From Squalus acanthias (lineage: Eukaryota): DNA of 64,000 nt. The notes below the pieces were generated by a model, which saw nothing but the letters and a program-made list of their open reading frames with translations, did not search any database and was not told where the DNA came from. The DNA is taken from contig CM059432.1 in assembly GCA_030390025.1 (NCBI GenBank), forward strand, positions 18,292,001 to 18,356,000, given 5' to 3'. A program made the position numbers and the translations under genes. Shown here piece by piece: positions 2,847-35,617 of the stretch. Positions within the stretch are counted from its first letter, which is position 1. Each line of letters begins with the position of its first letter.

Positions 2847-3482
2847 GGGCCGTATTTTCCGATCAGAGGCTTCCCGCGTGCGGAGTCCTCCGATCTGGAA
2901 AAAATCTACGCAGTTACCTGAGGGCTCCTGAGGTGCATATAGTTCCGATGCTGGGCCTCTCCAACTCCAAGTGTGCAGGGCCCACGTATCCCAGGGGCGC
3001 ATGCAGTTCGCAAGCGTCCCTGGGATCACGTGGGACATGGGGAGCCAATCAAAGAAGGGAATCTCCCTTCATACACTTGACAGATAGACCTGTCAAATAT
3101 ATGAATGGAGATCACCCCAAAAACACTTTAAAACATTAAATACGTTTTTTTAAAAAATCACATTTTTAAAATTAGTTGAAATTACAATAGATTAAATATT
3201 TTTTACTTTATTCAACTCTTATCCTGGTAAAAGCAAGCCTTACGCCAGGTGTAAGAATTCTAAGGGTTTTCTGCGGGCGGAGGGTCTCCAGAAAGCGGAA
3301 CTATCCGCCGGCAGAGGCCCTTTTCCAGGGCAGGCGTCCAATCTGTCAAGAGCATTCTTGATAGATCGGAAATGCTGGTTTTCAGCGCATGCGCTGTGCA
3401 TGCCTGAAACCGGCATTTCCGATGTCCTTACGGGTGTGTACACAACGCGTACACACCCATAGGGATCGGACTATCCAGGCCC
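2847..3482. mobile_element. Harbinger-type MITE, family M2, inserted in CR1 ORF2
   Basis: Imperfect TIRs GGGCCGTATTTTCCGATC / GATCGGACTATCCAGGCCC; flanks AAT/ACT; internal similarity to 7629-8387; CR1 EN frame resumes after it. Confidence 0.7.
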
Positions 3483-4915
3483 ACTAAAGGATCAATCACA
3501 CTCATAGGCGTAGTCTTTTGACCACCTAAGAGTGGAAGGGAGGTGGAGGAAGAAATATGCAGACAAATTAGGGAAATGAGTAGAAAACATAGAATAATAA
3601 TCATGGGGGATTTCAACTACCCCGATATTAATTGGACAGAAGAGGTAGGTAAAGGGGATAAGGGAATGGAGTTCCTACAATTCGTTTGGGACTCCTTTCT
3701 AACCCAATATGTAAAAAGCCCAACAAGGGAGGATTCGCTATTGGATCTAGTAATGGGAAATGAACCAGAACAGATAAGAGAAGTAAAAGTAGGGGAACAT
3801 CTAGGCAATAGCGACCATAATATAATACGCTTTATGATGATAATTGAGAAGGACATAAGTATGACGAAAACCAGGTTAATAGATTGGAGAAAAGCTGATT
3901 TTGAAGGGCTGAGAATAGAACTTGGGAAAATAAAATGGACAACAATATTGGCAAACAACGATGTAGAACAGCAATGGGAAACATTTAAAACGGTGCTCAA
4001 CAGAGCGCAGAAACAATATATTCTGCTAAAAGGAAAGAACAAACTAAACACTAATGAGACTCCATGGATGAATAAAGCCATAAGGGAACAATTGAGGGTA
4101 AGGAAAGAGGCATACATTAAGTACATGGACAGTAGGGGAGTGCATGATAAGGGAGAATATGAAGAGATTAGGAGAGAAGTCAACAAAACAATTAGGAAGG
4201 CAAAGAGGAACTATGAAATTAAATTATCAAGGAACATAAAACAAAATAGTAAAATATTTTACAGGCACATCAATAAAATAAAGGTTTTATATTATAAAAA
4301 GGATATAGAGGCACTGGAGAGGTTACAGAGAAGATTTACAAGGATGATACCAGAAATGCGAGAGTATACATATCAGGAAAGGATGAACAAGCTGGGTCTC
4401 TCGTCTCTTGAAAAAAGAAGGCTGAGGGGTGACCTAATAGAGGTTTTTTAAATTATGAAAGGTTTTGATAGAGTGGATACAGAGAGAGTGTTTCCACTTA
4501 GAATCATAGAATCATAGAATGGTTACAGCACAGAAGAAGGCTATTCGGCCCGTGGGGCCCATGCCGATTCTCGGCTAGTCCCACTCCCCTGCCCTTTTCC
4601 CGTAGCCCTGCAATTTTTTTTCCTTCAGATACTTATCCAACTCCCTTTTGAAAGATAAGATTGAGTCTGCCTCCACCACCCTTTCAGGCAGTGCATTCCA
4701 GATCTTAACCACTCACTGCGTAAAAAAGTTTTTTTCTTACGTCGCCTTTGGTTCTTTTGCCAATCACCTTAAATCTGTGTCCTCTGGTTCTCGACCCTTC
4801 TGCCAATGGGAAAAGTTTCTCTCTATCGACTCTGTCCAGACCGCTCATGATTTTGAACACCTCTATCAAATCTCCTCTCAATCTTCTCTGCTCCAAGGAG
4901 AAAAACCCCAGCTTC

Positions 4916-8699: not shown

Positions 8700-11600
8700 T
8701 ACAGGTAGATATTTAATTTCAGTACCCACAACTTAATCTAGATCAAATAAGTAGTTAAGAAACTACACTGTAAACAAAGTTAACTAATTTCAAATTTAAT
8801 TAAATAAAACAAGGTCCTATAGGGATGGCGGTGCAGGTGGTGTGCCGCAACTGCAGCATGTAGAGAGTTTGTGGAGAGCATTGTGATCCCGGACAACCAC
8901 GTTTGCAGGAAGTGTCTGCATATTGAGGAACTTCAGCTCAGAGTTTTTGAGCTGGAGTCTGAGGTGCAGACATTGCGGGGCATCAGGGATGGGGAGAGTT
9001 ACCTGGACACTTTGATCCAGGAGGCAGTCACACTCCTTATGTTAGGTAGTGGTACAGGTCTGGTTAGTGGTCAGGGGCAGGAGGATATGACTGCTAGTCA
9101 GGCAGGTAAGGGGACCCCAGGTGCAGCGCTGGAGGAGCCTCAGCCTTTGTCCTTGTCCAACGGATATGAGGTTCTCGCTGCCTGTGTGGATGAGGGAAAA
9201 GCCTGCAGGATGGATGAGCAAACTGACCATGGCACCATGGTGCAGGAGGCTGTTCAAATGGGGGGAGTGAAAGGGAATGTAGTTGAGGTAGGGGACAGTA
9301 TAGTCAGGGGGATAGATACTGTTCTCTGCAGCCGCGACCGAGAGTTCTGAAGGTTGTGTTGCTTGCCCAATGCCAGGGTTAAAGACATCTCCTCATGGCT
9401 GGAGGAGAGCTTGGAGTGGGAGGGGGAGGATCCAGTGGTCGTGGTCCACGTAGGAACCAACGACATAGGTAGAACTAGGAATGAGGTTCTGCTGAGGGAG
9501 CTTTAAGAGATAGGATCCAAATTAAAAAGTAGAACCTCAAAGTTAATAATCTCTGGATTGTTACCTGAGCCACATGCAGATTGGCATAGGGACAAACAGA
9601 TTAGAGGTTTAAAAGCGTGGATCAAAGAGTGGTGTGGGAGGTTTGGGTTTCAGTTCATGGGGCACTGGTACCAGTACTGGGGAAAGAGGGAGCTGTTCCG
9701 TTGGGATGAGTGTCCTGGCGAACCGAATAACTAGGGCAGTAGACAGGGCTTTAAACTAATGAAGGGGGGGGGGGGGGGAAGCGGTGGGAGGATTCAAGAA
9801 AGAGTAAATTTAAAAGCAGCAAGAGAAATGTCAAGGCTCTCGAGCAGAGTAGAGTTTTCGGTAAAAATAAGCAGATTGGGTCAGGAAGGGACAGAGAGAG
9901 TAACAAAGGTAATAAGGCATCAGTGACGAAGGTGACATCAAGGAAAAATACAAATAAGTCAAAGCTAAGGGCACTATATCTGAATGTGCGAAGCAGTCGC
10001 AACAAAATAGATGAATTAATAGCGCAGATAGAATTTAATAGTTTTGATCTAATAGCCATTACGGAGACGTGGTTGCAATGTGGCCAAGGTTGGGAACTAA
10101 ATATTCCAGGATACTTAACTTTTAGAAGAGATAGGCAAAATGGAAAAGAAGGAGGGGTAGCCCTGATAATAAAGGATGGGATAAAGACAGTAGAGAGAAA
10201 GGGGGAGAAATTCGGTATCACCCCGTTTGGGGCGCAATTATCGGCCGGGCGCAAAGTTTAGCGCCTGGCGCTAATTATCGCTTCCGACTGCAAACTTGGC
10301 TTCTATTGCCCTTGGAGGTGATTGGAGCGCTAAATCAGGCGCTACACACCTCTCTTAAGGCGCTAACGCCGAGGAGTGAGGCGCTACCTCAGAGCGCTGG
10401 CGAAGCTCATGTGATGTCAGTCAGCAATGGAACACAGACACACTGGCGCTGGCCAGTTCTTAAAGGGGAGGGTCGATCTTGCTCTTCTTCCACACCCTGT
10501 TCATTGCAGCCTTGAATCTCGGCCTGGAGAGACCTGTACATCAAATCTGCTGGAAAGAACAATGGAGAGGCCCAGGGAAAGAGCTCAGACTGCAGCCCCC
10601 AAAGTCTCTTCTAAATCGATGCAAGGAAGATCAAACCAGAAAGAACCTGCAAAGTGCTGCTCAGTACCCAAAACTCCTCAACAGAGCTTTGAATATTTCC
10701 TGCAGTCTCTCTCTCTCACTCAGAATGCGTGGTGCAAAAATTTCGCCGACAAAAAAAGGCATGAAGCGGTCGTTTTTAAATAGCACTCCCCCAGTCCCTT
10801 CCCGACTGAAAAACGTTCCCCTCAACCTGTCATTGCTAGCGGCAGGTGGTAAGACAGGGGGCACCACTCAATATCTGCTCTGGGGCGCTACCGGGGTGTT
10901 GCACGCTCGACTGATGTCGCAATCTGCGGGCGCAGGAGATCGTGGCGGTAGTGTTTAGCGCCGCCGCAAAATGTCTAGTCAATTTCGTGAGCGGCGCAAA
11001 CATTGCCGCGCCCGGGCGCTAGTTGCTTTGCGCCCCAGTAGCGCCCTCTTAAGGCGCTAACGGGAGGTGCAAACCAACCGAATTTTTCCCCCAAAGGATC
11101 TTAGGTCCGAAAATCAAGATGTAGAATCAGTTTGGGTGTAGCTGAGAAACAGCAAGGGGCAGAAAACATTGATGGAAGTTATTTATAGGCCCCCAAACAG
11201 TAGTTGTAATGTAGGGCAGAGTAAAAATCAGGAAATTAGAGGTGCATGTAACAAGGGTAATACAGTAATCATGGGGGACTTTAATCTACATATAGACTGG
11301 GCAAACCAAATTTGCAGTAATAGTGTGGAGGACGAATTCATGGAATGTATGCAAGATAGTTTTCTAGATCAGTATGTTGATGAACCAACTAGGGAACAGG
11401 CTATTTTAGATCTAGTATTGTGCAAAGAGAAAGGGTTAATTAATAACCTTATAGTAAAGGGGCATTTAGGGAAAAGTGACCATAATATGATAGAATTTTA
11501 TATTGAGTTTGAAAGTGATTTAGTTAAATCCGAAACTAGGGTCTTAAATCTAAACAAAGCAAACTATGTAGGTATAGGGGGCAAGTTGGCTAAGGTAGAT

Positions 11601-18381: not shown

Positions 18382-21188
18382 TTATGCATTCATGGGATGT
18401 GGGTGTCGCTGGCAAGGCCAGCATTTATTGCCTAACACTAGTTGCACTTGAGAAGGTGGTGGTGAGCCTCCTTCTTGAGCTGCTGCAGTCCGTGTGGTAA
18501 AGGTACTCCCACAGTGCTGAGGGAGTTCCAGGATTTTGACCCAGCGACGATGAAGGAACGGCGATATACTTCCAAGTCAGGATGGTGTGTGACTTGGAGG
18601 GGAACTTGGAGGTGATGGTGTTCCCATGCATCTGCTGCCCTTGTCCTTCTAGGTGGTCGAGGTCGTGGGATTGGGAAGTGCTGCCAAAGAAGCCTTGGCG
18701 AGTTGCTGCAGTGCATCTTGTAGATGGTACACATTGCAGCCACGGTGTGCCGGTGGTGGAGGGAGTGAATGTTTAAGGTGGTGGATGGGGTGCCAATCAA
18801 GCGGGCTGTTTTGTCTTGGATGGTGTCGAGCTTCTTGAGTGTTGTTGGAGCTGCACTCATCAAGGCAAGTGGAGCGTATTCCATCACACTCCTGACTTGT
18901 GCCTTGGGTGGGGGATTTGGCGATCGTAATGTCGTTGAATGTCAAGGGGCGGTGGTTAAATGCTCGCTTGTTGGAGATAGTCATTGCCTGGCACTTGTGT
19001 GGCACGAATGTAACCTGCCACTTATCAGCCCAAGCCTGAATGTCATCCAGATCTTGCTGCATGCGGACATGGACTGCTTCATTATCTGAGGAGTTGTGAA
19101 TGGCACTGAACACTGTGCAATCATCAGCAAACATCCCCATTTCTGACCTTATAATGGAGGGAAGGTCATTGATGAAGCAGCTAAAGATGGTTGGGCCTAG
19201 GACACTGCCCTGAGGAACTCCTGCAGCGATGTCCTGGGGCTGTGATGATTGACCTCCAACCACCACAACCATCATCCTTTGTGCTAGGTATGACTCCAGC
19301 CAATGGAGAGTTTTCCCCCCGATTCCCATTAACTTCAGTTTTACTCGGGCTCCTTGATGCCACACTCGGTCAAATGCTGCCTTGATGTCAAGGGCAGTCA
19401 CTTTCACCTCACCTCTGGAATTCAGCTCTTTTGTCCATATTTGGACCAAGGCTATAATGAGGTCTGGAGCCGAGTGGTCATGCCTGAACCCAAACTGGGC
19501 ATCAGTGAGCAGGTTATTGGTGAGTAAGTGCTGCTTGATAGCACTGTCGACGACACCTTCCATCACTTTGCTGATGATTGAGTAGACTGATGGGGCGGTA
19601 ATTGGGTGGATTGGATTTGTCCTGCTTTTTGTGGACAGGACATACCTGGGCAGTTTTCCACATTGTCGGATAGATGCCAGTGTTATAGCTGTACTGGAAC
19701 AGCTTGGCTAGAGGTGCGGCTAGTTCTGGAGCACAAGGGGGAGAAATTCAGTATCGCCCCATTTGGGGCGCAATTATCGGCCGGGCGCAAAGATTAGCGC
19801 CTGGTGCTAATTATCGCCACCGACTGCAAACTTGACTTTTATCGCCCCTGGAGGTGATTGCAGCGCTATATCAGGCGCTTCACACCTGTCTTAAGGCGCA
19901 AAGGCGGAGGAGCGAGGCGCTACCTCAGAGCGCTGGCGAAGCTCATGTAATGTCAGTCAGCAATGGAACACACACACAATGGCACGGGCCAGTTCTTAAA
20001 GGGGATGGTTAATCTTGCTTTCCATCCACATCCTGCTCATTGCAGCCTTGAATCTCGGCCTGGAGAGACTTGCACATCAAATGTGCTGGAAAGAACAATG
20101 GAGAGTACCAGGCAAAGAGCTCAGAGTGCAGCCCCCACAGTCTCTGCTAAATCGATACAAGGAATGGCAAATCAAAATGAACCTGCAAAGTGCTGCTCAG
20201 TACCCAAAACTCCTTCACACAACGTTGAATCTCTCCAGAAGTCTCTCCCTCTCTCTCTCAGAATGCGTAGTCCAAAAATGGCACCAACAATAAAAGGCAG
20301 GAAGCGCTCCCCCTTTCCCTTCATGACTGCAGAACGCTCCCCTCAACCTGTCGTTGCTAGCATCAGGCGGTAAGGCAGGGGGCGCCACTCAATATCCGCT
20401 CCGGGGCGATACCGGGGCGTTGCGCACTCGAGTGACGTCATGATCTGCCGGCGCAGGAGATCGTGGCGGTAGTGTTTAGCGCTGCCGCAAAATGTCTAGT
20501 TAATTTCGCGAGCGGCGCAAACTTCGCTGCGCCTGGGCGCTAGATGCTTTGCGCCCCATTAGCGCCCTCTTAAGGCGCTAACGGGAGGCGCAACCAACTG
20601 AATTTTTCCCCCCAAGTCTTTAGCACGACAGCCAGGATGTTGACGGGGCCCTCAGCCTTTGCTGTATCCAGTGCGCTCAGCCATTTCTTGATATCACGTG
20701 GAGTGAATCGAATTGGCTGAAGACGGGCTTCTGTGGTGGTGGAGACCTCAGGAGTAGGCCGATATGGATCATCCACTCGGCAATTCTGACTGAAGATGGT
20801 TGCAAACGCTTCAGCTTTGTCTTTTGCACTCACGTGCTAGGCACCACCATCATTGAGGATGTGAATATTCATGGAGCCTCTTCCCCCGTTAGTTGTTTAA
20901 TGGCCCACTACCATTCACAACTGGATGTGGCAGGACTGCAGAGCTTTGATCTGATCCGTTGATTGTGGGATCGCTTAGCTCTCTCTATAGCATGCTGCTT
21001 CTGCTTTTTAGCATGTATGTAGTCCTGTGTTGCAGCTTCCCCAGGTTGGCACCGCATTTCTTTCAGGTACACCTGGTGCTGCTCCTGGCTTGCTCTTCTA
21101 CACTCTTCATTGAACCAGTGTTGGTCCCCTGGCTTCATGGTAATGGTAGAGTGAGGGATATGCTGGGCCATGAGGTTACAGATTGTGG
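18382..21188 (-). mobile_element. LINE-B (second CR1/L2-group lineage), RT-bearing 3' part, with MITE insertion
   Basis: ORF 18649-19566 ([32 protein letters not shown]); 3' end AATAAATGCTGGCCTTGCCAGCGAC...CATCCCATGAAT. Confidence 0.85.
19737..20612. mobile_element. Harbinger MITE, family M1 (876 bp)
   Basis: TIR GGGGGAGAAATTCAGT / ACTGAATTTTTCCCCC; TSD CAA/CAA. Confidence 0.92.
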
Positions 21189-22665: not shown

Positions 22666-23559
22666 AGCATAACCTTTTAAGTGTGTGAACTCCTGCTTCA
22701 AATTTCTCTCCATTCAATGCCCCAGCCTGTTGAAGTTAGACAAAACAGCCTCCTGTAGATTGGAGCCCAAGACCTGTACACCAGCAGTCTAAGCATTCAT
22801 GGATGAAACTCCGCTGGGCTTAGAAGTGTCCTGCTGCAGATATCCTTGGAGTTGCCATGGACTCTAAGGTAGTCCAGTTCAGAGAAGGCTTTCTGTATAA
22901 CTTCACAGATCTGTCTGGTGGATCCCTCCACACTCCCAGTCAGACCTTACAGGGTGTTATGGACAGACTCAAGTGACTCCTGTAGACGATCATGCTCAGA
23001 CTGCAATCTCCTTTTCTATGCAGTGTTTCTGAGGTCTGAATCTCTAGGCATTGCAGCAGAAGGAGTTGAGCTGGCCCTCTGGCAGCAGGTTCCTGCTTCC
23101 CCTCTATCATTATCAGTTGCTGCTGCTCATCTGTGCACTGATTCACCTGGTGCTTATTCCTCAAGCCGAATTTAACAGCAGGACCTGATTAGCATATTCA
23201 ATCTGTGTCCCGCTCGCAGCCAGCCAGATGGAGAGGCTGGCTGGCTGCCGGGTAGGTAGGCCTGCGGCACCAGGCTGCAGAGAGAAAGGAGGGAGGGATC
23301 GGGGGGGGGGGGCGGTGGGGGTGCGGTTGGAGGCTGGAGGAGGATCGGGGCCGGAGGGGAGAGGTCGGAAGGCCGGAGGGGGGTTCGGAGACCAGAGGGG
23401 GGAGTCGGGGGCCAGAGGGAGATCGGGGGCCGAGGATTGAAGGCCAGAGGGGGGATCGAGATCGCGGCCTCGTGGGGCGGGGGTGGGGGGTCGGAGGCCC
23501 CGGGTGGGCGGTGTTCCAAGCCTTCAAAAAACATAAATTGACCATGGCAGAGATACCAA

Positions 23560-23893
23560 ATAAGTCCTTTGGTTCTTGTTTCACAGAGGAGGTAGATACT
23601 GACAGTGCAGAACCACCAGAGTCAGGTGTAGAGCAGTTGGCGGAGGTTTTTATGCAAAGAGAAATGGTACTAAAGAAGTTACACAAGGTTAAAGTAGACA
23701 AATCACTGGAACTTTATGGTTTACATCAGAAGATCCTGAGGGCAGCTGGAGGAGAAATAACAGAGACTCTGACAAATTTTCCAGAATTCTGTGGAAAGGA
23801 AAATTGTGCCAGAGGACTGAAAGGTGGCAAACGTGATTCCCCTCTTCAAAAAAGGAGTCGAGGATAAGCCAGAAAATTAGAGGCCGATTAATT
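23560..23893 (+). mobile_element. Old CR1 ORF2 fragment, left part; continues inverted at 28967-28994 and at 34241-34886
   Basis: KVDKS..GLH..IL; ends ..PLFKKG..RPIN. Confidence 0.7.
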
Positions 23894-24571
23894 TTAGATC
23901 CCTGATGGCAGCAGGACAGATAGATAAGGTGGTTAAGAAGGCATATGGGATACGTGCCTTCATTAGCTGAGGCATAGAATATAAGAGCAGGGAGGTTATG
24001 AGGGAGCTGTACAAAACGCTAGTTAGGCAGCAGCTGGAATACTGTGTGCAGTTCTGGTCGCCACACTATAGGAAGGATGTGATTGCATTGGAGAGGGTGC
24101 AGAGGAGATTCACCAGGATGTTACCTGGGCTGGAGCGCTTCAGCTATGAAGAGACTGGACAGGCTGGGGTTGTTTTCCTTAGAGCAGAGAAGGCTGAGGG
24201 GGGACCTGATTGAGGTGTACAAAATTATGAGGGGCATAGATAGGGTAGATAGAAAGGAACATTTCCCCTTAGTAGAGGGGTCAATAACCAGGGGGCATAG
24301 TTTCAAGGTAAGGGGCAGGAGGTTTAGAGGGGATTTGAGGAAAAACTTTTTCACCCAGAGGGTGGTTGGAATCTGGAACTCACTGCCTGAAAGGGTGGTA
24401 GAGGCAGGAACCCTCACAACATTCAAGAAGCATTTAGATGAGCACTTGAAACGCCATAGCATACAAGGCTACGGACCAAGTGCTGGAAAATGGGATTAGA
24501 ATAGATAGGGCTTGATGGCTGGCATGGACACGATGGGCTGAAGGGCCACTTTCTGTGCTGTATAACTCTAT
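23894..24571 (+). mobile_element. Younger CR1 3' fragment whose (GACTCTAT)n tail is the Harbinger insertion site
   Basis: ORFs 23998-24213 and 24083-24499 (CR1 C-terminus); tail TATAACTCTAT abuts the TIR. Confidence 0.85.
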
Positions 24572-25083
24572 GGGGTAAAAATTCAGTTGGTTGCGCCTCC
24601 CATTAGCGCCTTAAATGGGCGCTAATGGGGCGTTAAGGCGCTAACGCCCGGGTGCAGCGCTGTTTGCGCCGCTTGAGAACTTAACTTGAGATTGTGCGGC
24701 GGCGCTAAAACTTACCGCTGCGACCACCTGCGCGCGCAGATTGTGACGTCAGTCCGTGGTGCAACGCCCTTGGGGCGCCCCGGAGCGGAAATTGAGTGGC
24801 GCCCCCTGCCTTACCGCCTGGCGCTTCCAACGACCGGAAGACTGGAACGTTATCAATCGGTCTGGGGCTGGGGGGGGCGCTATTTAAAGGGGTCCTCTTC
24901 CTGTCTTTTTCTGTGGTCGACATTTATGCACCACTCGTTCTGAGAGAGAGAGAGAGATTCGGAGAGAGAGAGAGAGAGACTTCTACATTGACTCAACGCT
25001 TTGTGAGGTAGTTTTGCCTAGTTCATCCTAACTTTGCTGCTACTTTCGTTGCTGTACCTCATTACTTTTCTGGCAAAGAGAAG

Positions 25084-26244
25084 ATGGGGGCTGCAATGAT
25101 TGGGGGCGTCGTCCTGCTCCAGCTCAATCGGAGCAGAGTGAGACGCAGACAGAGAGTGGCAATGATGGCCAGACGGAGGAGGCCCATCAGGCGCATGTAC
25201 AGGAGAGCTTACCCTCCCAGGGTATATCGTGAACAGCTCTCCTACATCCACATGTCCGAGGAGCTGTGTTTGCGAAGGCTGCGATTCAGCAAGGAGGTGG
25301 TCACTGAGCTCTGCCACCTGCTGCAGCCAGATCTGCAGCCTCAGCTGAGGTCCAGGACGTCTCTGTCGGTGGCAGTGAAGGTCACAGTGGCCTTGAACTT
25401 CTACGCCACTGGCTCATTCCAAGCTGCTGTTGGGGACCTCGCCAATATCTCCCAGTTTGCGGTGCATCGCTGCATCCGGCAGGTCACCAATGCCCTCTTC
25501 ACAAGGAGACAAGACTTCATCTCCTTCCCTATGACCCCAGACAAGCAGCATGACCGTGCTATGGGCTTTGCGAGGGTAGCGGGCTTCCCCATGGTGCAGG
25601 GCGCCATTGACTGCACGCATGTGGCTTTGCGTGCTCCGCGAGAGAATGCAGAGGAGTTCCGGAACAGAAAGGGGTTCCATTCCTTGAATGTGCAGTTGGT
25701 CTGTGACCACAGACAGGTGATTCTCGCTGTCAATGCCCACTATCCGGGCAGCTGCCACGATGCTTTCATCCTGCGCCAGAGTACTGTGGCAGAAATTTTC
25801 GAGGCACCGCATCAGCCAGTCGGTTGGCTTCTGGGGGACAAGGGGTACGCATTGAGCACCTGGCTGATGACACCGCTCCGTGCGCCAAACACCCCTGCTG
25901 AGCTGCGGTACCAGGAAAGCCAACAAGCAACGAGGAACATTATTGAGCGCACAATCGGCGTGCTCAAACAACGATTCCGCTGTCTGGACCATTCCGGAGG
26001 AGCCCTGCAGTACTCGCCTGAGCAAGTTTCCAAATTCGTAGTGGTGTGCTGCATGTTGCACAACATGGCAATCCTCAGGATGCAGCCAATGCCACCAGGC
26101 CTTGCAGCACCACAAGAGGAGGAGGAGGAAGAGGAGGAACAGGCCGAGGACGATGATCATCAGCAGCACCAAGGCAGGAGGGCGGCCCACAATGGTCAAA
26201 CTGCAAGGGCCGTCCGTCAACGACTAATAGCAAGCCGCTTCTAG
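25084..26244 (+). CDS. Harbinger (HARBI1-like) DDE transposase, 386 aa
   Basis: GAIDCTHV, RKGFHSLNVQLVCD, PGSCHDAFIL, LLGDKGY, RNIIERTIGVLKQRFRCL, CCMLHN. Confidence 0.95.
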   Translation: MGAAMIGGVVLLQLNRSRVRRRQRVAMMARRRRPIRRMYRRAYPPRVYREQLSYIHMSEELCLRRLRFSKEVVTELCHLLQPDLQPQLRSRTSLSVAVKVTVALNFYATGSFQAAVGDLANISQFAVHRCIRQVTNALFTRRQDFISFPMTPDKQHDRAMGFARVAGFPMVQGAIDCTHVALRAPRENAEEFRNRKGFHSLNVQLVCDHRQVILAVNAHYPGSCHDAFILRQSTVAEIFEAPHQPVGWLLGDKGYALSTWLMTPLRAPNTPAELRYQESQQATRNIIERTIGVLKQRFRCLDHSGGALQYSPEQVSKFVVVCCMLHNMAILRMQPMPPGLAAPQEEEEEEEEQAEDDDHQQHQGRRAAHNGQTARAVRQRLIASRF

Positions 26245-26538
26245 GGCCCCTGCCAGTGCTACAAACACGAATCAACCCAGCACGCAACCCCTAAGCCGGC
26301 CAAGGCACCAATAATTCCAACCACCAGCCATGTATATTTTGAATACAGAAACTTATTTATTGTACAAACTCTGTGTGTGTCAATTCCTCATGACAAACTC
26401 ATAGAAATAAACACAAAAAAACAGTCAATAACATAACTGGTTCTCACAACCTGGAGATAATGTCCAAAACACTAAACAAAAGTTGGGCCATGAACCTCGG
26501 CCTTTAATAAAAAAATGACCAGCATTTTGTCACACCTC

Positions 26539-28609
26539 CTACTTTTTGCCCTTCGAGGGTGATCTCCTTCCCTTGCGCACTTCCCCCCTTCTAACCCTAC
26601 TGCTCCTCCGTAATGGGACCTCAGTGGCTGCAGCAAGGCTGGTGGAAGGTTGCTGCTTGTCAGACCCTGACACTGCAGATGCCCCTGAAGGCCGGCCTCG
26701 ACCACTTCTGGGCCTGGAGGGCCCGGCTGCAGACTGCACCAACTCTGCATGGGCGGCAGCAGTCTGTCCTACAGGCGGTGGCAAGTGCAGTGGAGAAGTG
26801 ACAGTGTTGGCAGCAGGAATGCTGTCATTGTGAGAGAGGACAGCAACTCCCTGCTCGCCCGACACACTGGCACTCCCACGGGGCAGCACTTCAGCATCCG
26901 GAGCAATTTGCCTGAGAACAGATTGCTGGCCTGCTGCGGCGCGGTGACAGCCCCGGGGACATGTGCACGAACCATCGAGGATGGCAGCAGTCAGTGCTCG
27001 CGTGGCCTCAATCTGAGTCTGCATGAGAGCAGGCTCAGATGGGTTCCTGGCAGCCAGTGACTGAATTGCAGCAGTAAGCTTTAGTGTGGCATCCGCCTGT
27101 GCTACAGCGAAGTGCTCCACACTCCTTGCCAGTGCCTCAATGCATTCGGGCACCCTTCCCACTGCACCCATGAGCTCAGTGTGCATGACCACCGCCTGGC
27201 TGTTCATTTCTGCAATCATCCGCTCCTCCTCTGCGTCCATTGCATTAGGAGTGTCTGGCATACTCTCCCTCTGGGGAGAAGGCTCCCGTTCTTCCCTCCC
27301 CCCCCATGGCGTTGCTGCAGCCCGCTGGGTCCTGGAACTTCACCATCATCAGCCCCTTCCCCCCTGCTCCCCCGTTCTTCCCTCCCCCCCCCATGGCGTT
27401 GCTGCAGCCCGCTGGGTCCTGGAAGTTCACCATCATCAGCCCCTTCCCCCCTGCTCCCCTCCGGGGAAGGCGTGTTCCCAGTGTGGCCATGGGCTACCTC
27501 GGGAGAGGGTGGCACTGATGCTCCGGCTTCCTCTTCCTCCTCAGCTGCAGCATCACTCCCAGTGGCAGCTTCAGGGACCATCTCCTCAGCTGGTGAATCA
27601 CCATCTGAAAGCAGGGAGGTACAAGAGTGGCTTTAGCGTGAGGACAGGGTGGCAGTAAGGGAGGAATAAGTGCAGCGAGTTAGCAAGTTGGATTGAAAGT
27701 GTCAAAGGCTGGTATTGTGAGGGACAAGTGGAAGGACAGAGGACAAAAAGGTGATGACCTTACCATTGCTGTCCACAACGGGGTCGGCGTCTCCAGTGGC
27801 GACGGGACCGATCACCCGGCTTGCCACAATCCTGTGGACGCGCTCCTCCAGATCGCTGAGGGGTTGCAGCTGAAGCCGCCCTCCACCCGTCCGTTGCTGC
27901 TGTCTCCGATTATGAGCCAGCTTAGCCTGCAAGAAAAAGGACAGCATCTGAGTCAATATACAGCCATGGTCTTGCCTGATGTGCCTCCCATAGGTGAATA
28001 GCCCTTACAATATGCAGCCATGGTCTTGCCTGATGTGCCTCCCATAGGTGAATAGCCCTTACAATATGCAGCCATGGTCTTGCCTGATGTGCCTCCCATA
28101 GGTGAATAGCCCTTACAATATGCAGCCATGGTCTTGCCTGATGTGCCTCCCATAGGTGAATAGCCCTTACAATATGCAGCCATGGTCTTGCCTGATGTGC
28201 CTCCCATAGGTGAATAGCCCTTACTGTATGCAAAGTGTGGAATGTGTGTGTGTGTTTGATGAAAGGGCCATAGGTGTTGGATGAGTGTTGTGCATTGGGG
28301 TTTTAAGACCCTCTGGCCATAGAGTGAGGTTGAGATGGAGGGATGGAGAGGTATTGAGAAAAAGCCACTCACCCTGACGACCCGAGTGAGGTCGTTGAAC
28401 TTCTTGCGGCACTGGACATGGGTCCTGGGCACCATGCTCCTGGAGGAGACGCTCTGAGCCACCTCCCTCCACACTCTTCTGAACTCGCGTGGCAAAGGCC
28501 TCCTGCCACTCTCTGGGAACAGCATGCATCGTCTGCGCTCCACTGCGTCAACCAGAGCATCCAAGGCCCGCTCGGTGAAGCGATGAGCGCGTTCTCTCAC
28601 CCTCTCCAT
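26539..28609 (-). CDS. Harbinger Myb/SANT-like partner gene, copy 1; exons 28609-28373, 27926-27764, 27604-26539; 1-bp frameshift in a G run at ~27298-27305
   Basis: FTERALDALVDAV..W REVA..R..QCRKKFNDL trihelix motif; GT-AG introns; exon 3 is 1066 nt versus 1067 nt in copy 2. Confidence 0.8.
27961..28224. repeat. 54-bp minisatellite, 5 units, in intron 1 of the Myb gene
   Basis: CAGCCATGGTCTTGCCTGATGTGCCTCCCATAGGTGAATAGCCCTTACAATATG repeated. Confidence 0.95.
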
Positions 28610-28994
28610 TCTTGGCAGCAAAATGGATTACAGGTCTCTCCAGGCTGAGATTCAAGGCTGCAATGAGCAGGGTGTGGCTGGGGAGCAAGTGGCCCCCCCC
28701 GCTTTAAGAAGTGTCCGGCGTCAGTGTGTCTGTGTTCCCGCGCTAACTGGCAGCAGCTGCGCTGCGCTCGTGCGCTGAGTTAGCGCCTCACTCCTAGGCC
28801 TTTGCGCCTTAAGAGAGGTGTGCAGCGCCTAATTTAGCGCTCCACTCACCTCCCGGGGCGGTAAAAGTGAAGTTTCCTGTCAGTGCCGATAATTAGCGCC
28901 AGGCGCTAATATTTGCGCGCGGACGATATTTGCGCCCCAAATGGGGCGCGACCTAATTTCTACCCCAAATAGTTTACCAACAACTGAAGTCACA

Positions 28995-29887
28995 GGGGGA
29001 AAAATTCAGTTGGTTGCGTCTCCCGTTAGCGCCTTAAGAGGGCGCTAATGGGGTGCAAAGCATCTAGCGCCTGGGCGCGGCGATGTTTGCGCCGCTCGCG
29101 AAATTAACTAGACATTTTGCGGCGGCGCTAAACACTACCGCCACGATCTCCTGCGCCAGCAGATCGTGACATCAGTCGAGTGCGCAACACCCCGGTATCG
29201 CCCCAGAGCGGATATTGAGTGGCGCCCCCTGCCTTACCGCCTGCCGCTAGCAACGACAGGTTGAGGGGAGCGTTTTGCAGTCAGGAAGGGACTGGGGGAG
29301 CGCTATTTAAAGGCGACCGCTTCCTGCCTTTTATTGTTGGTGACATTTTAGAACCACGCATTCTGAGAGAGAGAGAGAGAGACTTCTGGAGAGATTCAAC
29401 GCTGTGTGAAGGAGTTTTGGGTACTGAGCAGCACTTTGCAGGTTCATTTTGATTTGCCCTTCCTTGTATCGATTTAGAAGAGACTGTGGGGGCTGCACTC
29501 TGAGCTCTTCCCCTGGTACTCTCCATTGTTCTTTCCAGCAGATTTGATGTGCAGGTCTCTCCAGGCCGAGATTCAAGGCTGCAATGAGCAGGATGTGGAT
29601 GGAAAGCAAGATCAACCCTCCCCTTTAAGAACTGGCCCACGCCATTGTGTCTGTGTTCCATTGCTGACTGACATCACATGAGCTTCGCCAGTGCTCTGAG
29701 GTAGCGCCTCGCTCCTCGCCCTATGCGCCTTAAGACAGGTGTGAAGCGCCTGATTTAGCGCTCCAATGACCTCCAGGGGCGATAAAAGTCAAGTTTGCTG
29801 TCGGTGGCGATAATTAGCGCCAGGCGCTAATCTTTGCGCCCGGCCGATAATTGCGCCCCAAATGCGGCGATACTGAATTTCTCCCCC
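28995..29887. mobile_element. Harbinger MITE, family M1 (893 bp), in the spacer of the palindrome
   Basis: TIR GGGGGAAAAATTCAGT / ACTGAATTTCTCCCCC; flanks ACA/ATA (TSD with one mismatch). Confidence 0.9.
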
Positions 29888-30255
29888 ATAGAGTCATAGG
29901 GGTAGAAATTAGGTCGCGCCCCATTTGGGGCGCAAATATCGTCCGCGCGCAAATATTAGCGCCTGGCGCTAATTATCGGCACTGACAGGAAACTTCACTT
30001 TTACCGCCCCGGGAGGTGAGTGGAGCGCTAAATTAGGCGCTGCACACCTCTCTTAAGGCGCAAAGGCCTAGGAGTGAGGCGCTAACTCAGCGCACGAGCG
30101 CAGCGCAGCTGCTGCCAGTTAGCGCGGTAACACAGACACACTGGCGCCGGACACTTCTTAAAGCGGGGGGGGCCACTTGCTCCCCAGCCACACCCTGCTC
30201 ATTGCAGCCTTGAATCTCAGCCTGGAGAGACCTGTAATCCATTTTGCTGCCAAGA

Positions 30256-32273
30256 ATGGAGAGGGTGAGAGAACGCGCTCATCGCTTCACCGAGCGGGCC
30301 TTGGATGCTCTGGTTGACGCAGTGGAGCGCAGACGATGCATGCTGTTCCCAGAGAGTGGCAGGAGGCCTTTGCCACGCGAGTTCAGAAGAGTGTGGAGGG
30401 AGGTGGCTCAGAGCGTCTCCTCCAGGAGCATGGTGCCCAGGACCCATGTCCAGTGCCGCAAAAAGTTCAACGACCTCACTCGGGTCGTCAGGGTGAGTGG
30501 CTTTTTCTCAATACCTCTCCATCCCTCCATCTCAACCTCACTCTATGGCCAGAGGGTCTTAAAACCCCAATGCACAACACTCATCCAACACCTATGGCCC
30601 TTTCATCAAACACACACACACATTCCACACTTTGCATACAGTAAGGGCTATTCACCTATGGGAGGCACATCAGGCAAGACCATGGCTGCATATTGTAAGG
30701 GCTATTCACCTATGGGAGGCACATCAGGCAAGACCATGGCTGCATATTGTAAGGGCTATTCACCTATGGGAGGCACATCAGGCAAGACCATGGCTGCATA
30801 TTGTAAGGGCTATTCACCTATGGGAGGCACATCAGGCAAGACCATGGCTGTATATTGACTCAGATGCTGTCCTTTTTCTTGCAGGCTAAGCTGGCTCATA
30901 ATCGGAGACAGCAGCAACGGACGGGTGGAGGGCGGCTTCAGCTGCAACCCCTCAGCGATCTGGAGGAGCGCGTCCACAGGATTGTGGCAAGCCGGGTGAT
31001 CGGTCCCGTCGCCACTGGAGACGCCGACCCCGTTGTGGACAGCAATGGTAAGGTCATCACCTTTTTGTCCTCTGTCCTTCCACTTGTCCCTCACAATACC
31101 AGCCTTTGACACTTTCAATCCAACTTGCTAACTCGCTGCACTTATTCCTCCCTTACTGCCACCCTGTCCTCACGCTAAAGCCACTCTTGTACCTCCCTGC
31201 TTTCAGATGGTGATTCACCAGCTGAGGAGATGGTCCCTGAAGCTGCCACTGGGAGTGATGCTGCAGCTGAGGAGGAAGAGGAAGCCGGAGCATCAGTGCC
31301 ACCCTCTCCCGAGGAAGCCCATGGCCACACTGGGAACACGCCTTCCCCGGAGGGGAGCAGGGGGGAAGGGGCTGATGATGGTGAAGTTCCAGGACCCAGC
31401 GGGCTGCAGCAACGCCATGGGGGGGGGAGGGAAGAAAGGGGGAGCAGGGGGGAAGGGGCTGATGATGGTGAAGTTCCAGGACCCAGCGGGCTGCAGCAAC
31501 GCCATGGGGGGGGGAGGGAAGAACGGGAGCCTTCTCCCCAGAGGGAGAGTATGCCAGACACTCCTAATGCAATGGACGCAGAGGAGGAGCGGATGATTGC
31601 AGAAATGAACAGCCAGGCGGTGGTCATGCACACTGAGCTCATGGGTGCAGTGGGAAGGGTGCCCGAATGCATTGAGGCACTGGCAAGGAGTGTGGAGCAC
31701 TTCGCTGTAGCACAGGCGGATGCCACACTAAAGCTTACTGCTGCAATTCAGTCACTGGCTGCCAGGAACCCATCTGAGCCTGCTCTCATGCAGACTCAGA
31801 TTGAGGCCACGCGAGCACTGACTGCTGCCATCCTCGATGGTTCGTGCACATGTCCCCGGGGCTGTCACCGCGCCGCAGCAGGCCAGCAATCTGTTCTCAG
31901 GCAAATTGCTCCGGATGCTGAAGTGCTGCCCCGTGGGAGTGCCAGTGTGTCGGGCGAGCAGGGAGTTGCTGTCCTCTCTCACGATGACAGCATTCCTGCT
32001 GCCAACACTGTCACTTCTCCACTGCACTTGCCACCGCCTGTAGGACAGACTGCTGCCGCCCATGCAGAGTTGGTGCAGTCTGCAGCCGGGCCCTCCAGGC
32101 CCAGAAGTGGTCGAGGCCGGCCTTCAGGGGCATCTGCAGTGTCAGGGTCTGACGAGCAGCAGCCTTCCACCAGCCTTGCTGCAGCCACTGAGGTCCCATT
32201 ACGGAGGAGCAGTAGGGTTAGAAGGGGGGAAGTGCGCAAGGGAAGGAGATCACCCTCGAAGGGCAAAAAGTAG
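30256..32273 (+). CDS. Harbinger Myb/SANT-like partner protein, intact; exons 30256-30492, 30885-31047, 31207-32273; 488 aa predicted
   Basis: AGG|GTGAGT ... TTCTTGCAG|GCT (phase 0) and AATG|GTAAG ... TTTCAG|AT (phase 1) give one open frame ending ..RKGRRSPSKGKK*. Confidence 0.85.
30641..30850. repeat. 54-bp minisatellite, 4 units, in intron 1 of the Myb gene
   Basis: Same unit as 27961-28224, reverse orientation. Confidence 0.95.
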
Positions 32274-32567
32274 GATGTGTGCCAAAATGCTGGTCATTTT
32301 TTTATTAAAGGCCGAGGTTCATGGCCCAACTTTTGTTTAGTGTTTTGGACATTATCTCCAGGTTGTGAGAACCAGTTATGTTATTGACTGTTTTTTGGTG
32401 TTTATTTCTATGAGTTTCTCATGAGGAATTGACACACACAGAGTTTGTACAATAAATAAGTTTCTGTATTCAAAATATACATGGCTGGTGGTTGGAATTA
32501 TTGGTGCCTTGGCCGGCTTAGGGGTTGCGTGCTGGGTTGATTCGTGTTTGTAGCACTGGCAGGGGTC

Positions 32568-33728
32568 CTAGAAGCGGCTTGCTATTAGTCGTTGACGGAC
32601 GGCCCTTGCAGTTTGACCATTGTGGGCCGCCCTCCTGCCTTGGTGCTGCTGCTGATCATCGTCCTCGGCCTGTTCCTCCTCTTCCTCCTCCTCCTCTTGT
32701 GGTGCTGCAAGGCCTGGTGGCATTGGCTGCGTCCTGAGGATTGCCATGTTGTGCAACATGCAGCACACCACTACGAATTTGGAAACTTGCTCAGGCGAGT
32801 ACTGCAGGGCTCCTCCGGAATGGTCCAGACAGCGGAATCGTTGTTTGAGCACGCCGATTGTGCGCTCAATAATGTTCCTCGTTGCTTGTTGGCTTTCCTG
32901 GTACCGCAGCTCAGCAGGGGTGTTTGGCGCACGGAGCGGTGTCATCAGCCAGGTGCTCAATGCGTACCCCTTGTCCCCCAGAAGCCAACCAACTGGCTGA
33001 TGCGGTGCCTCGAAAATTTCTGCCACAGTACTCTGGCGCAGGATGAAAGCATCGTGGCAGCTGCCCGGATAGTGGGCATTGACAGCGAGAATCACCTGTC
33101 TGTGGTCACAGACCAACTGCACATTCAAGGAATGGAACCCCTTTCTGTTCCGGAACTCCTCTGCATTCTCTCGCGGAGCACGCAAAGCCACATGCGTGCA
33201 GTCAATGGCGCCCTGCACCATGGGGAAGCCCGCTACCCTCGCAAAGCCCATAGCACGGTCATGCTGCTTGTCTGGGGTCATAGGGAAGGAGATGAAGTCT
33301 CGTCTCCTTGTGAAGAGGGCATTGGTGACCTGCCGAATGCAGCGATGCACCGCAAACTGGGAGATATTGGCGAGGTCCCCAACAGCAGCTTGGAATGAGC
33401 CAGTGGCGTAGAAGTTCAAGGCCACTGTGACCTTCACTGCCACCGACAGAGACGTCCTGGACCTCAGCTGAGGCTGCAGATCTGGCTGCAGCAGGTGGCA
33501 GAGCTCAGTGACCACCTCCTTGCTGAATCGCAGCCTTCGCAAACACAGCTCCTCGGACATGTGGATGTAGGAGAGCTGTTCACGATATACCCTGGGAGGG
33601 TAAGCTCTCCTGTACATGCGCCTGATGGGCCTCCTCCGTCTGGCCATCATTGCCACTCTCTGTCTGCGTCTCACTCTGCTCCGATTGAGCTGGAGCAGGA
33701 CGACGCCCCCAATCATTGCAGCCCCCAT
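32568..33728 (-). CDS. Harbinger DDE transposase, 386 aa, copy 2
   Basis: Same motifs as copy 1; three amino-acid differences (Q/R, M/T, H/Q). Confidence 0.95.
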   Translation of the reverse strand: MGAAMIGGVVLLQLNRSRVRRRQRVAMMARRRRPIRRMYRRAYPPRVYREQLSYIHMSEELCLRRLRFSKEVVTELCHLLQPDLQPQLRSRTSLSVAVKVTVALNFYATGSFQAAVGDLANISQFAVHRCIRQVTNALFTRRRDFISFPMTPDKQHDRAMGFARVAGFPMVQGAIDCTHVALRAPRENAEEFRNRKGFHSLNVQLVCDHRQVILAVNAHYPGSCHDAFILRQSTVAEIFEAPHQPVGWLLGDKGYALSTWLMTPLRAPNTPAELRYQESQQATRNIIERTIGVLKQRFRCLDHSGGALQYSPEQVSKFVVVCCMLHNMAILRTQPMPPGLAAPQEEEEEEEEQAEDDDQQQHQGRRAAHNGQTARAVRQRLIASRF

Positions 33729-34240
33729 CTTCTCTTTGCCAGAAAAGTAATGAGGTACAGCAACGAAAGTAGCAGCAAAGTTAGGATGAACTAGGCAAAA
33801 CTACCTCACAAAGCGTTGAGTCAATGTAGAAGTCTCTCTCTCTCTCTCTCCGAATCTCTCTCTCTCTCTCAGAACGAGTGGTGCATAAATGTCGACCACA
33901 GAAAAAGACAGGAAGAGGCCCCCTTTAAATAGCGCCCCCCCCAGCCCCAGACCGATTGATAACGTTCCAGTCTTCCGGTCGTTGGAAGCGCCAGGCGGTA
34001 AGGCAGGGGGCGCCACTCAATTTCCGCTCCGGGGCGCCCCAAGGGCGTTGCACCACAGAATGACGTCACAATCTGCGCGCGCAGGTGGTCGCAGCGGTAA
34101 GTTTTAGCGCCGCCGCACAATCTCAAGTTAAGTTCTCGAGCGGCGCAAACAGCGCTGCGCCCAGGCGTTAGCGCCTTAACGCCCCATTAGCGCCCATTTA
34201 AGGCGCTAACGGGAGGCGCAACCAACTGAATTTTTACCCC

Positions 34241-34886
34241 TTTGAGTTTATAATATGGGATGAATTCACTAAGCAGTTGGTGAAACATGACTTAATCCGG
34301 GCCAGTCAGTCAGCACATCTATCTGAAAGTCAGGTCATGTTTGACCAATCCAATAGGATTGTTTGAAGAAATTACTTGATAGATAAAGGGAGCGCTGTGA
34401 AAGTGATTTATACTGATTTTCAAAAAAAATATCCAGTACGATAAGAGACTTACGGCAGGATAATAGGACACAGAATTTGAGACCATAAAAAGACAATCGG
34501 TTTTGTATCTAGAGGCATTAAATACAAAAGCAAGGAGGTGATGTTGAACTTATACAAGATCTTAGGCCACAGTTGATGTATAGTGTGCAGTTCTGCCTGC
34601 CACATTATAGCAAGGATATAAAAGCAATGGAAAAAATGCAGTGTAAATTTACTAGGATGTTACCAAAAATGAGGAGTACAGTTATGGGGACACTTGAAAA
34701 GTCTGAACATTTTTTTGCTAAATGTGAGAAGTTAGGAAAAGTCCGTAAATTATTTTAAAATGGAATGAATTAATTGCTTGAAAAAGAGGATTATTAAAAG
34801 GTATGGGGTGTGAGAAGGGCAGTTGAGCTAGACTGGTGGCTCATGTGAAGAAAACCAATGACCTGTTCTGTGCTATAACATTCTAT
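34241..34886 (+). mobile_element. Old CR1 ORF2/3' remnant, right part
   Basis: FEFIIWDEFTKQLVKHDLIRASQ..CLTN; YSVQFCLPHYSKDIKAMEK; tail CTGTGCTATAACATTCTAT. Confidence 0.75.
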
Positions 34887-35617
34887 GGGGTAAAAATTGA
34901 GTCGCGCCCCATTTGGGGCGCTAACCTCGCCGGGGCGCGACTTTTAGCGCCCCGAAAAAATTAGCGGCCCCGCGCCGGAACTTCAGTGGTTGCGCCCCAA
35001 GAGGGAAGCGGGGCGCCACTGGAAGCACCCCGCATCCCTCTTGGGGCGCTGCGAGTGAATATCCTGGCGCTACGTGCCGCGGTATTGCAGGCCTTCCTCC
35101 CCTTCTTAAAGGGGAGGGACCCTGCGCAGCGCGAACCGGGGCCCAGCTGGGCCCCCAGGGATCGGGAGTGCCGGCAAAAGAGCCCGGCACTCAAGAGAAG
35201 TGCCGGGCTCTTGGAGCGCAGCCGGCACTTCACGGTGGGGGGGCTTCACGGGGGCCGGGGACAGCAACGGGGGCAGGTGCTGGCAGGCGGCCAGCAACAA
35301 AAATGGCCGCCTGCCACCTCACTTTAAATATCGCCGCCCCGGCTGCACGTACGCCTCCCTGAACCCGTCGGACATAGCGTCTGGCGGTAAATCAGGGGGC
35401 GCGACTGAAGATCACGGCCGGGGTGCTGCGCACGGCGATGACGTCATCGCCGGCGGCGCAGCGCCACAGGGCGCTACCGGCTGCCGCTGCCGCTAACCTC
35501 CCACTAAATTTTTCGGGAGGCGTGGGCGGCGCTGCGCCCGGGCGTTAGCTGCTTTACGCCCCATTAGCGCCCTCTTAAGGCGCTAACGGGAGGCGCAAGC
35601 AGCTGAATTTTTCCCCC
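34887..35617. mobile_element. Harbinger MITE (731 bp, GC-rich)
   Basis: TIR GGGGTAAAAATTGAG / CTGAATTTTTCCCCC; TSD TAT/TAT; subterminal blocks shared with the autonomous element. Confidence 0.9.

Follow-up and report, generated by a model that had tools for sequence, protein, structure and literature searches.

Exchanged target-site duplications and a flipped spacer in a Harbinger palindrome of Squalus acanthias: probable origin by recombination between two insertions

In a stretch of 64,000 nucleotides of S. acanthias DNA (the window), two Harbinger copies lie in opposite orientation, their target-site duplications (TSDs) are exchanged and the spacer between them is flipped. This raises the question of how the arrangement arose. 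In IS26, Tn3 and Mu, intramolecular replicative transposition produces a duplication with an adjacent inversion and exchanged target duplications, and the daughter copies are identical. A preliminary description of the locus took the exchanged TSDs as a sign of such replicative transposition. It proposed either a one-step origin, replicative or through hybrid ends on sister chromatids, or a local hop followed by recombination between the arms. Our analysis favors a simpler history. Two independent insertions 0.9 kb apart and in opposite orientation, followed by a crossover between the arms that inverted the spacer, are the likely origin.

Structure of the palindrome and its spacer

Self-comparison of the window found a single long inverted repeat, 24572-28966 against 29899-34240. 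The repeat, the spacer and the surrounding CR1 elements contain the following features.

23480-23893, plus strand: old CR1, upstream piece, ending at RPIN (about 23880); read out from its frame, with an approximate left boundary
23894-24571, plus strand: young CR1, 5'-truncated, ending in a tail repeat whose final 3 bp are the outer site-1 TSD (TAT)
24572-28966, plus strand: Harbinger arm 1, 4395 bp, full length, with an alpha1 outer part and a beta inner end
25084-26244, plus strand: transposase ORF of arm 1, 386 aa, Pfam DDE_Tnp_4 (E=5e-38)
28967-29898, no strand: inverted spacer, 932 bp between the arms
28967-28994, minus strand: old CR1 reverse transcriptase piece, 28 bp, translating to VTSVVGKLF and carrying the inner copy of the site-2 TSD
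28995-29887, plus strand: non-autonomous Harbinger (MITE), 893 bp, with a decayed TSD (TAT/TGT, minus strand)
29888-29898, minus strand: CR1 tail repeat piece, 11 bp, carrying the inner copy of the site-1 TSD
29899-34240, minus strand: Harbinger arm 2, 4342 bp, full length, belonging to the very young beta sublineage in its outer part and to alpha1 at its inner end
30256-30495, plus strand: first coding stretch of the Myb/SANT-like gene in arm 2, Pfam Myb_DNA-bind_5 (E=1e-09)
34241-34886, plus strand: old CR1, downstream piece, starting FEFIIWDEF; its initial 3 bp are the outer site-2 TSD (TTT)

Between the arms there are 26 substitutions, a 1-bp homopolymer indel and a difference of one 54-bp repeat unit; identity across aligned columns is 99.4%. 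The transposase ORF recurs in mirror orientation in arm 2, at about 33728-32568, and the reading frame is open in both arms. The Myb/SANT-like stretch is mirrored in arm 1 at about 28609-28370, on the strand opposite to the transposase. The termini carry imperfect terminal inverted repeats (TIRs) of about 12 bp. A transposase paired with a Myb/SANT-like gene is the two-gene anatomy of Harbingers described in the available text of PMC9179366. Judged by their DDE_Tnp_4-type transposase, Myb/SANT-like ORF, short TIRs and 3-bp TSD, both arms are PIF/Harbinger (PHIS) transposons.

The TSDs are exchanged between the arms, as the preliminary description stated. In element orientation, arm 1 is preceded by TAT and followed by AAA, and arm 2 is preceded by AAA and followed by TAT. 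A self-matching 3-bp TSD is present in 36 of 39 solo family copies with both ends, picked by left-end similarity (35/38 plus locus L015; the truncated L032 was left out). The mismatch at the palindrome, with its swapped ends, is therefore not the family norm.

The CR1 pieces report the orientation of the spacer. On the minus strand, 29888-29898 prolongs the CR1 tail repeat that stops at 24571, and VTSVVGKLF (28967-28994) supplies what is missing between RPIN and FEFIIWDEF. At the position of VTSVVGKLF, further CR1 copies from the window and from fetched loci have RPVSLTSVVGK (30 motif matches, 14 inspected). Both links had been proposed earlier and both hold. Since the tail piece and the reverse transcriptase piece are each reversed relative to the flanks, the 932-bp spacer is inverted against both flanking CR1s in the assembly, again in agreement with the preliminary description. 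This orientation at 24572-34240 rests on one assembly, with no read spanning an arm. The CR1 tail and reverse transcriptase pieces are all accounted for, and flanking sequence was neither lost nor gained. The earlier description overlooked that 893 of the 932 bp in the spacer belong to a Harbinger MITE, which is 90-93% identical to window copies at 10201-11092 and 19737-20612. The young CR1 is 95-96% identical to copies in four other loci (L007, L008, L018 and L033). The inverted DNA consists of repeats only, and genes are unaffected by the inversion.

Sublineages in the two arms

The arms were compared with 76 other full-length copies, chosen by left-end similarity to the arms or by position on one contig (C1) and thus a biased sample of at least 1192. 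Thirteen diagnostic sites separate a beta sublineage (22 copies) from an alpha1 sublineage (5 copies) in this set. Of the ten outer sites, which extend to element position 1965, nine have the alpha state in arm 1 and the beta state in arm 2; at the tenth both arms are beta. The inner sites, from position 3832, have the reverse pattern, with arm 1 beta and arm 2 alpha at 3/3; this inner lineage switch comprises three sites spanning 335 bp. Such combinations are rare among the 76 copies. A beta right end occurs in 0/10 alpha1-left copies and in 1/46 of the copies classed as other. An alpha1 right end occurs in one of the 22 beta-left copies, L023, whose TSD is also mismatched. To judge from these sites, the arms are reciprocal chimeras of two genome-wide sublineages, not sister copies.

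The outer parts of the arms also differ in their closeness to other copies. In its left 369 bp, arm 2 shows 100% identity to every one of the 39 other copies scored. The corresponding stretch of arm 1 matches 39 other copies at 99% and is separated from arm 2 by 7 sites. The copies closest to arm 2 across element positions 1-2900 are one change away from it, compared with about 20 changes for arm 1. Outside masked repeats, arm 1 has six changes absent from all other copies, the last at position 2925. These private changes of the alpha copy are all confined to the outer two thirds, an uneven spread that speaks against a simple crossover unless it arose by chance or with the help of some conversion. 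The exchange between the arms can be placed between the last arm-1-private site (27496) and the first beta site (28403):

27497-28402, plus strand (arm 1), with 30463-31314 in arm 2: putative crossover interval, element positions 2926-3831

The lineage-diagnostic sites alone place it within 26537-28402.

Chimerism separates the possible origins. According to PMC2775673, exchanged TSDs of a cut-and-paste element have two possible sources, ectopic recombination and hybrid element insertion; chimeric copies indicate the former and identical copies the latter. Reading exchanged TSDs as a mark of replicative transposition was thus too narrow. The closest parallel in that text is the Galileo inversion 2z3 of Drosophila buzzatii, to which the same test was applied. 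It likewise has opposite cut-and-paste copies with exchanged TSDs, both of them chimeric. Galileo 2z3 is a chromosomal inversion made by P-superfamily elements, and non-inverted chromosomes were sequenced; the Squalus case involves 0.9 kb of repeat DNA between Harbingers in one assembly, and its ancestral state is inferred. The same source describes how hybrid element insertion of P elements gives the same inverted pair, flipped interval and exchanged TSDs. However, hybrid element insertion predicts identical, non-chimeric copies, unlike the Squalus arms.

A one-step origin by hybrid element insertion or replicative transposition, with the arms diverging later through conversion by ectopic copies, would produce exactly this geometry of TSDs and spacer (PMC2775673, in the part available). 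However, the arms at 24572-34240 come from different sublineages, and the same alpha1 type would have to have served as the source of two complementary conversions. We consider this origin very improbable. Still less credible is a local hop in which one copy moved about 0.9 kb, followed by arm recombination. The close spacing suits it and the recombination step fits, but a donor and its hopped copy should share lineage and private changes, and no rare variant common to both arms was found in the comparison with the 76 copies. Both origins fail at the same point, as both require arms that started as sister copies. From the preliminary description, the one-step origin is thus set aside; in the second proposal, the recombination agrees with the reciprocal chimerism and the local hop is contradicted by the different sublineages, barring a later overwriting of the arms. 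The route known from IS26, Tn3 and Mu also needs identical daughter copies, and nothing in the Squalus locus calls for it.

Target sites and neighboring copies across the genome

The family is abundant. The 3.7-Gb genome contains 8781 exact matches to a 24-mer from the right end and 1192 to a left-end marker for young copies of the full-length type. A target matrix built from 59 TSD-intact insertions is palindromic, about 15 bp long, with an A/T-rich center (mostly WWW); it is blind to orientation because the target is palindromic. Zebrafish Harbinger3_DR (PMC3016246) and the PIF/Harbinger elements of PHIS (PMC4482050, PMC9179366) likewise have a DDE transposase, a Myb-like ORF, short TIRs, a 3-bp TSD and a palindromic target of ~15 bp, in the available text of these sources. 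The center triplet in this comparison is CWG, in contrast to mostly WWW in the Squalus family.

On a modeled empty locus, the arm sites score 15.2 and 11.4 bits and the MITE site 12.2, and the next-best position scores 5.0. At most 0.003% of window positions equal the scores of the three insertion sites. By the matrix, the three insertion points are a hotspot, the top matches to the palindromic target of the family. Closeness of the two arms is explained by target-site strength, which argues further against a local hop. A beta and a non-beta copy at L063-L064 are similarly spaced, about 0.9 kb apart, in direct orientation.

Side-by-side insertion is common, without bias to the inverted orientation. 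Element ends lie 3-33 bp apart in 11 right-to-right, 6 left-to-left and 22 direct pairs, and about 0.6 are expected under uniform placement. The 17 inverted against 22 direct tight pairs contain no inverted excess (binomial p=0.52). Wider patterns found 52 tight inverted pairs (32 right-to-right, 20 left-to-left). We retrieved 34 of them, and 31 could be scored; the second batch, comprising 17 pairs, was selected mostly for matching end variants. Three pairs with 3-bp spacers (L094, L109 and L112), two of them 30-34-bp fold-backs and one ambiguous, are omitted from the flip counts. Unflipped calls for L091, L092, L104, L110, L114 and L115 rest on one side only or on a decayed TSD. For spacers between 34 bp and several kb, the survey covered coordinate lists from contig C1 only (the first 100 of 8781 right ends and the first 100 of 1192 young left ends).

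Swapped TSDs with a flip are found in two of the 31 scorable tight pairs, L084 and L085, both full-length. The preliminary description had proposed scoring TSD swaps in inverted pairs genome-wide, with a mix of swapped and unswapped pairs supporting secondary recombination. The outcome is such a mix, mostly unswapped. Among inverted neighbors 5-160 kb apart on contig C1, 0/18 have swapped TSDs. Flips occur in 2/6 other full-length tight palindromes versus 0/25 pairs with a short arm (p=0.04 for arm length when the outer L095 pair counts as a seventh unflipped full-length pair). The arms are 99.8% identical in L084 and 99.5% in L085. In the unflipped full-length pairs, identity is 99.5% (L096), 98.5% (L103), 98.9% (L110, inner 1.9 kb) and 94.4% (L114). 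Unflipped short-armed pairs include MITE pairs at 97.4-99.6%. With a threshold of at least 99% identity, set after the fact, 3/4 full-length pairs are flipped, the 24572-34240 locus included. The 0/25 short-armed flips and the lack of inverted excess among tight pairs speak against a one-step origin of the 24572-34240 palindrome.

The two flipped pairs differ in character. The L085 arms are identical over positions 40-2366 and differ at lineage sites further in, a pattern that points to conversion between separate insertions. L084 (G000:C2:166.21 Mb) is flipped, and its arms are of equal length (4396 bp) with 10 substitutions. They share a variant present in five copies genome-wide, which fits a sister origin or full homogenization. 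At the family level, this flipped pair with sister-like arms is the evidence in favor of a one-step route. A sister origin for the arms of L096 was also considered and dropped, as other copies are 99% identical to them.

The flip might instead be an artefact of the assembly or library, in which the real locus has two intact insertions with their own TSDs and the stretch of identity between the arms led to a wrong orientation of the spacer. An artefact would yield identical reciprocal chimeras and swapped TSDs, and it would likewise need long near-identical arms. However, the arms are uninterruptedly identical over only about 0.9 kb and retain 26 distinct sites. In the same assembly, near-identical beta copies that have both ends carry self-matching TSDs in 18 of 19 cases, which implies reads spanning whole elements, and the full-length palindrome L096, with arms 99.5% identical, was assembled unflipped. 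We therefore regard an artefact as unlikely. Public sequencing gives further views of the locus. Five runs from two samples contain 0.86-0.90 of the flank words. Contigs of three runs placed on 28940-35000 are short only and swamped by other copies of the family. The junction of arm 2 with its flank (34221-34536) lies within one contig of runs X1 and X4, from one sample that is possibly the source of the assembly. The empty-site joint is absent among the 15 of 82 joints inspected, a result that carries no weight for or against, as the placement was swamped by other copies.

Proposed history and its meaning

With independent insertions and a crossover as the preferred origin, the history of the locus would run as follows. 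A young CR1 would have inserted into the old CR1 and so placed three strong target sites inside a stretch of about 45 bp. The MITE, the alpha1 copy (at the TAT site) and lastly the beta copy (at the TTT site) would then have occupied them. Homologous recombination in the ~0.9-kb identical stretch of the arms would finally have swapped everything inward of it and flipped the spacer. Side-by-side insertion and ordinary recombination suffice, so an unusual copying mechanism is not needed. With its opposite copies, exchanged TSDs and reciprocal chimerism, the locus has the features of an inversion by ectopic recombination between transposable elements (NAHR).

The mechanism is ordinary and the example is clean: transposon-mediated inversion by ectopic recombination is of a kind already known. 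In human, 10.1101/2021.12.20.472354 attributes to NAHR those balanced inversions whose boundaries are mobile elements of high identity in inverted orientation (22 L1 and 9 Alu pairs). Those involve retroelements, and recurrence was shown on population haplotypes; the Squalus case involves Harbingers in one assembly. A literature search found no inversion made by Harbingers and no alternative transposition of Harbingers, which is weak evidence.

These results remove the seemingly striking claim of a replicative-type Harbinger transposition, and haplotypes across the family tell the routes apart. A very active, target-specific Harbinger family piles up its insertions within a few bases of one another, and flips are found only in long, near-identical inverted pairs. 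It is conceivable, although doubtful, that the site preference of the family keeps producing multi-kb palindromes that toggle and homogenize, and that L084, if no other, arose through a single step of hybrid-end transposition. A one-step origin of L084, if true, would be a natural vertebrate case of alternative transposition by a Harbinger. The series of palindromes could serve for measuring rates of inversion and arm conversion against arm length.

The Myb-like gene and further MITEs in the window

In arm 2 of the window's Harbinger pair, the Myb-like gene has an unbroken long open frame. In arm 1, this frame is split at position 27297, where one homopolymer base is absent compared to arm 2. 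This 1-base loss may be a sequencing error. The window also contains further non-autonomous Harbinger elements (MITEs):

10201-11092: Harbinger MITE
19737-20612: Harbinger MITE
34887-35617: Harbinger MITE inside another CR1 tail, with TAT as TSD

Target-site duplications and element ends at other loci

TSD mismatch is found in the full-length copies L023, L001, L077 and L080. L023 is a chimera with a beta left end and an alpha1 right end, and the other three are each 4375 bp in length. On contig C1, six young full-length copies (L061-L066) lie inside or close to an array of 8-bp tandem repeats (G000:C1:160.5-160.9 Mb), four of them with mismatched TSDs. Two further copies on this contig (L075-L076, 260.56 Mb) are in direct orientation, 7.2 kb apart, with identical flanks. 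This is a tandem segmental duplication that includes the element.

Three elements have direct duplications on both sides, of 33 bp or 11 bp:

L090, 5018-9423
L113, 4807-5699
L116, 4807-5707

These lengths equal the spacing of two adjacent target sites. The duplications may have arisen by crossover between alleles with insertions at adjacent sites.

Other Harbinger left ends are followed by a 3-bp spacer:

L109, 4799-4836
L112, 4770-4803
L094, 4999-5003

L109 and L112 each have, as partner of the element end, a 30-34-bp inverted copy of that same end, and the spacer between the two equals the outer TSD in reverse complement. Their termini look like template-switch fold-backs. The L094 end is ambiguous.

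Flipped full-length palindromes

Inverted spacers are found in two full-length Harbinger palindromes:

L085, 848-9260 (G000:C3:182.84 Mb): flipped
L084, G000:C2:166205702-166214504: 8.8 kb, 11-bp flipped spacer, swapped TSDs

The L085 arms are identical over 2.3 kb and differ at lineage sites farther inward, a pattern that would reflect conversion between the arms or consensus collapse. The L084 arms are sister-like, equal in length, 10 substitutions apart and with one rare variant in common. L084 is the strongest candidate for an origin in one step or for arms that have been fully homogenised.
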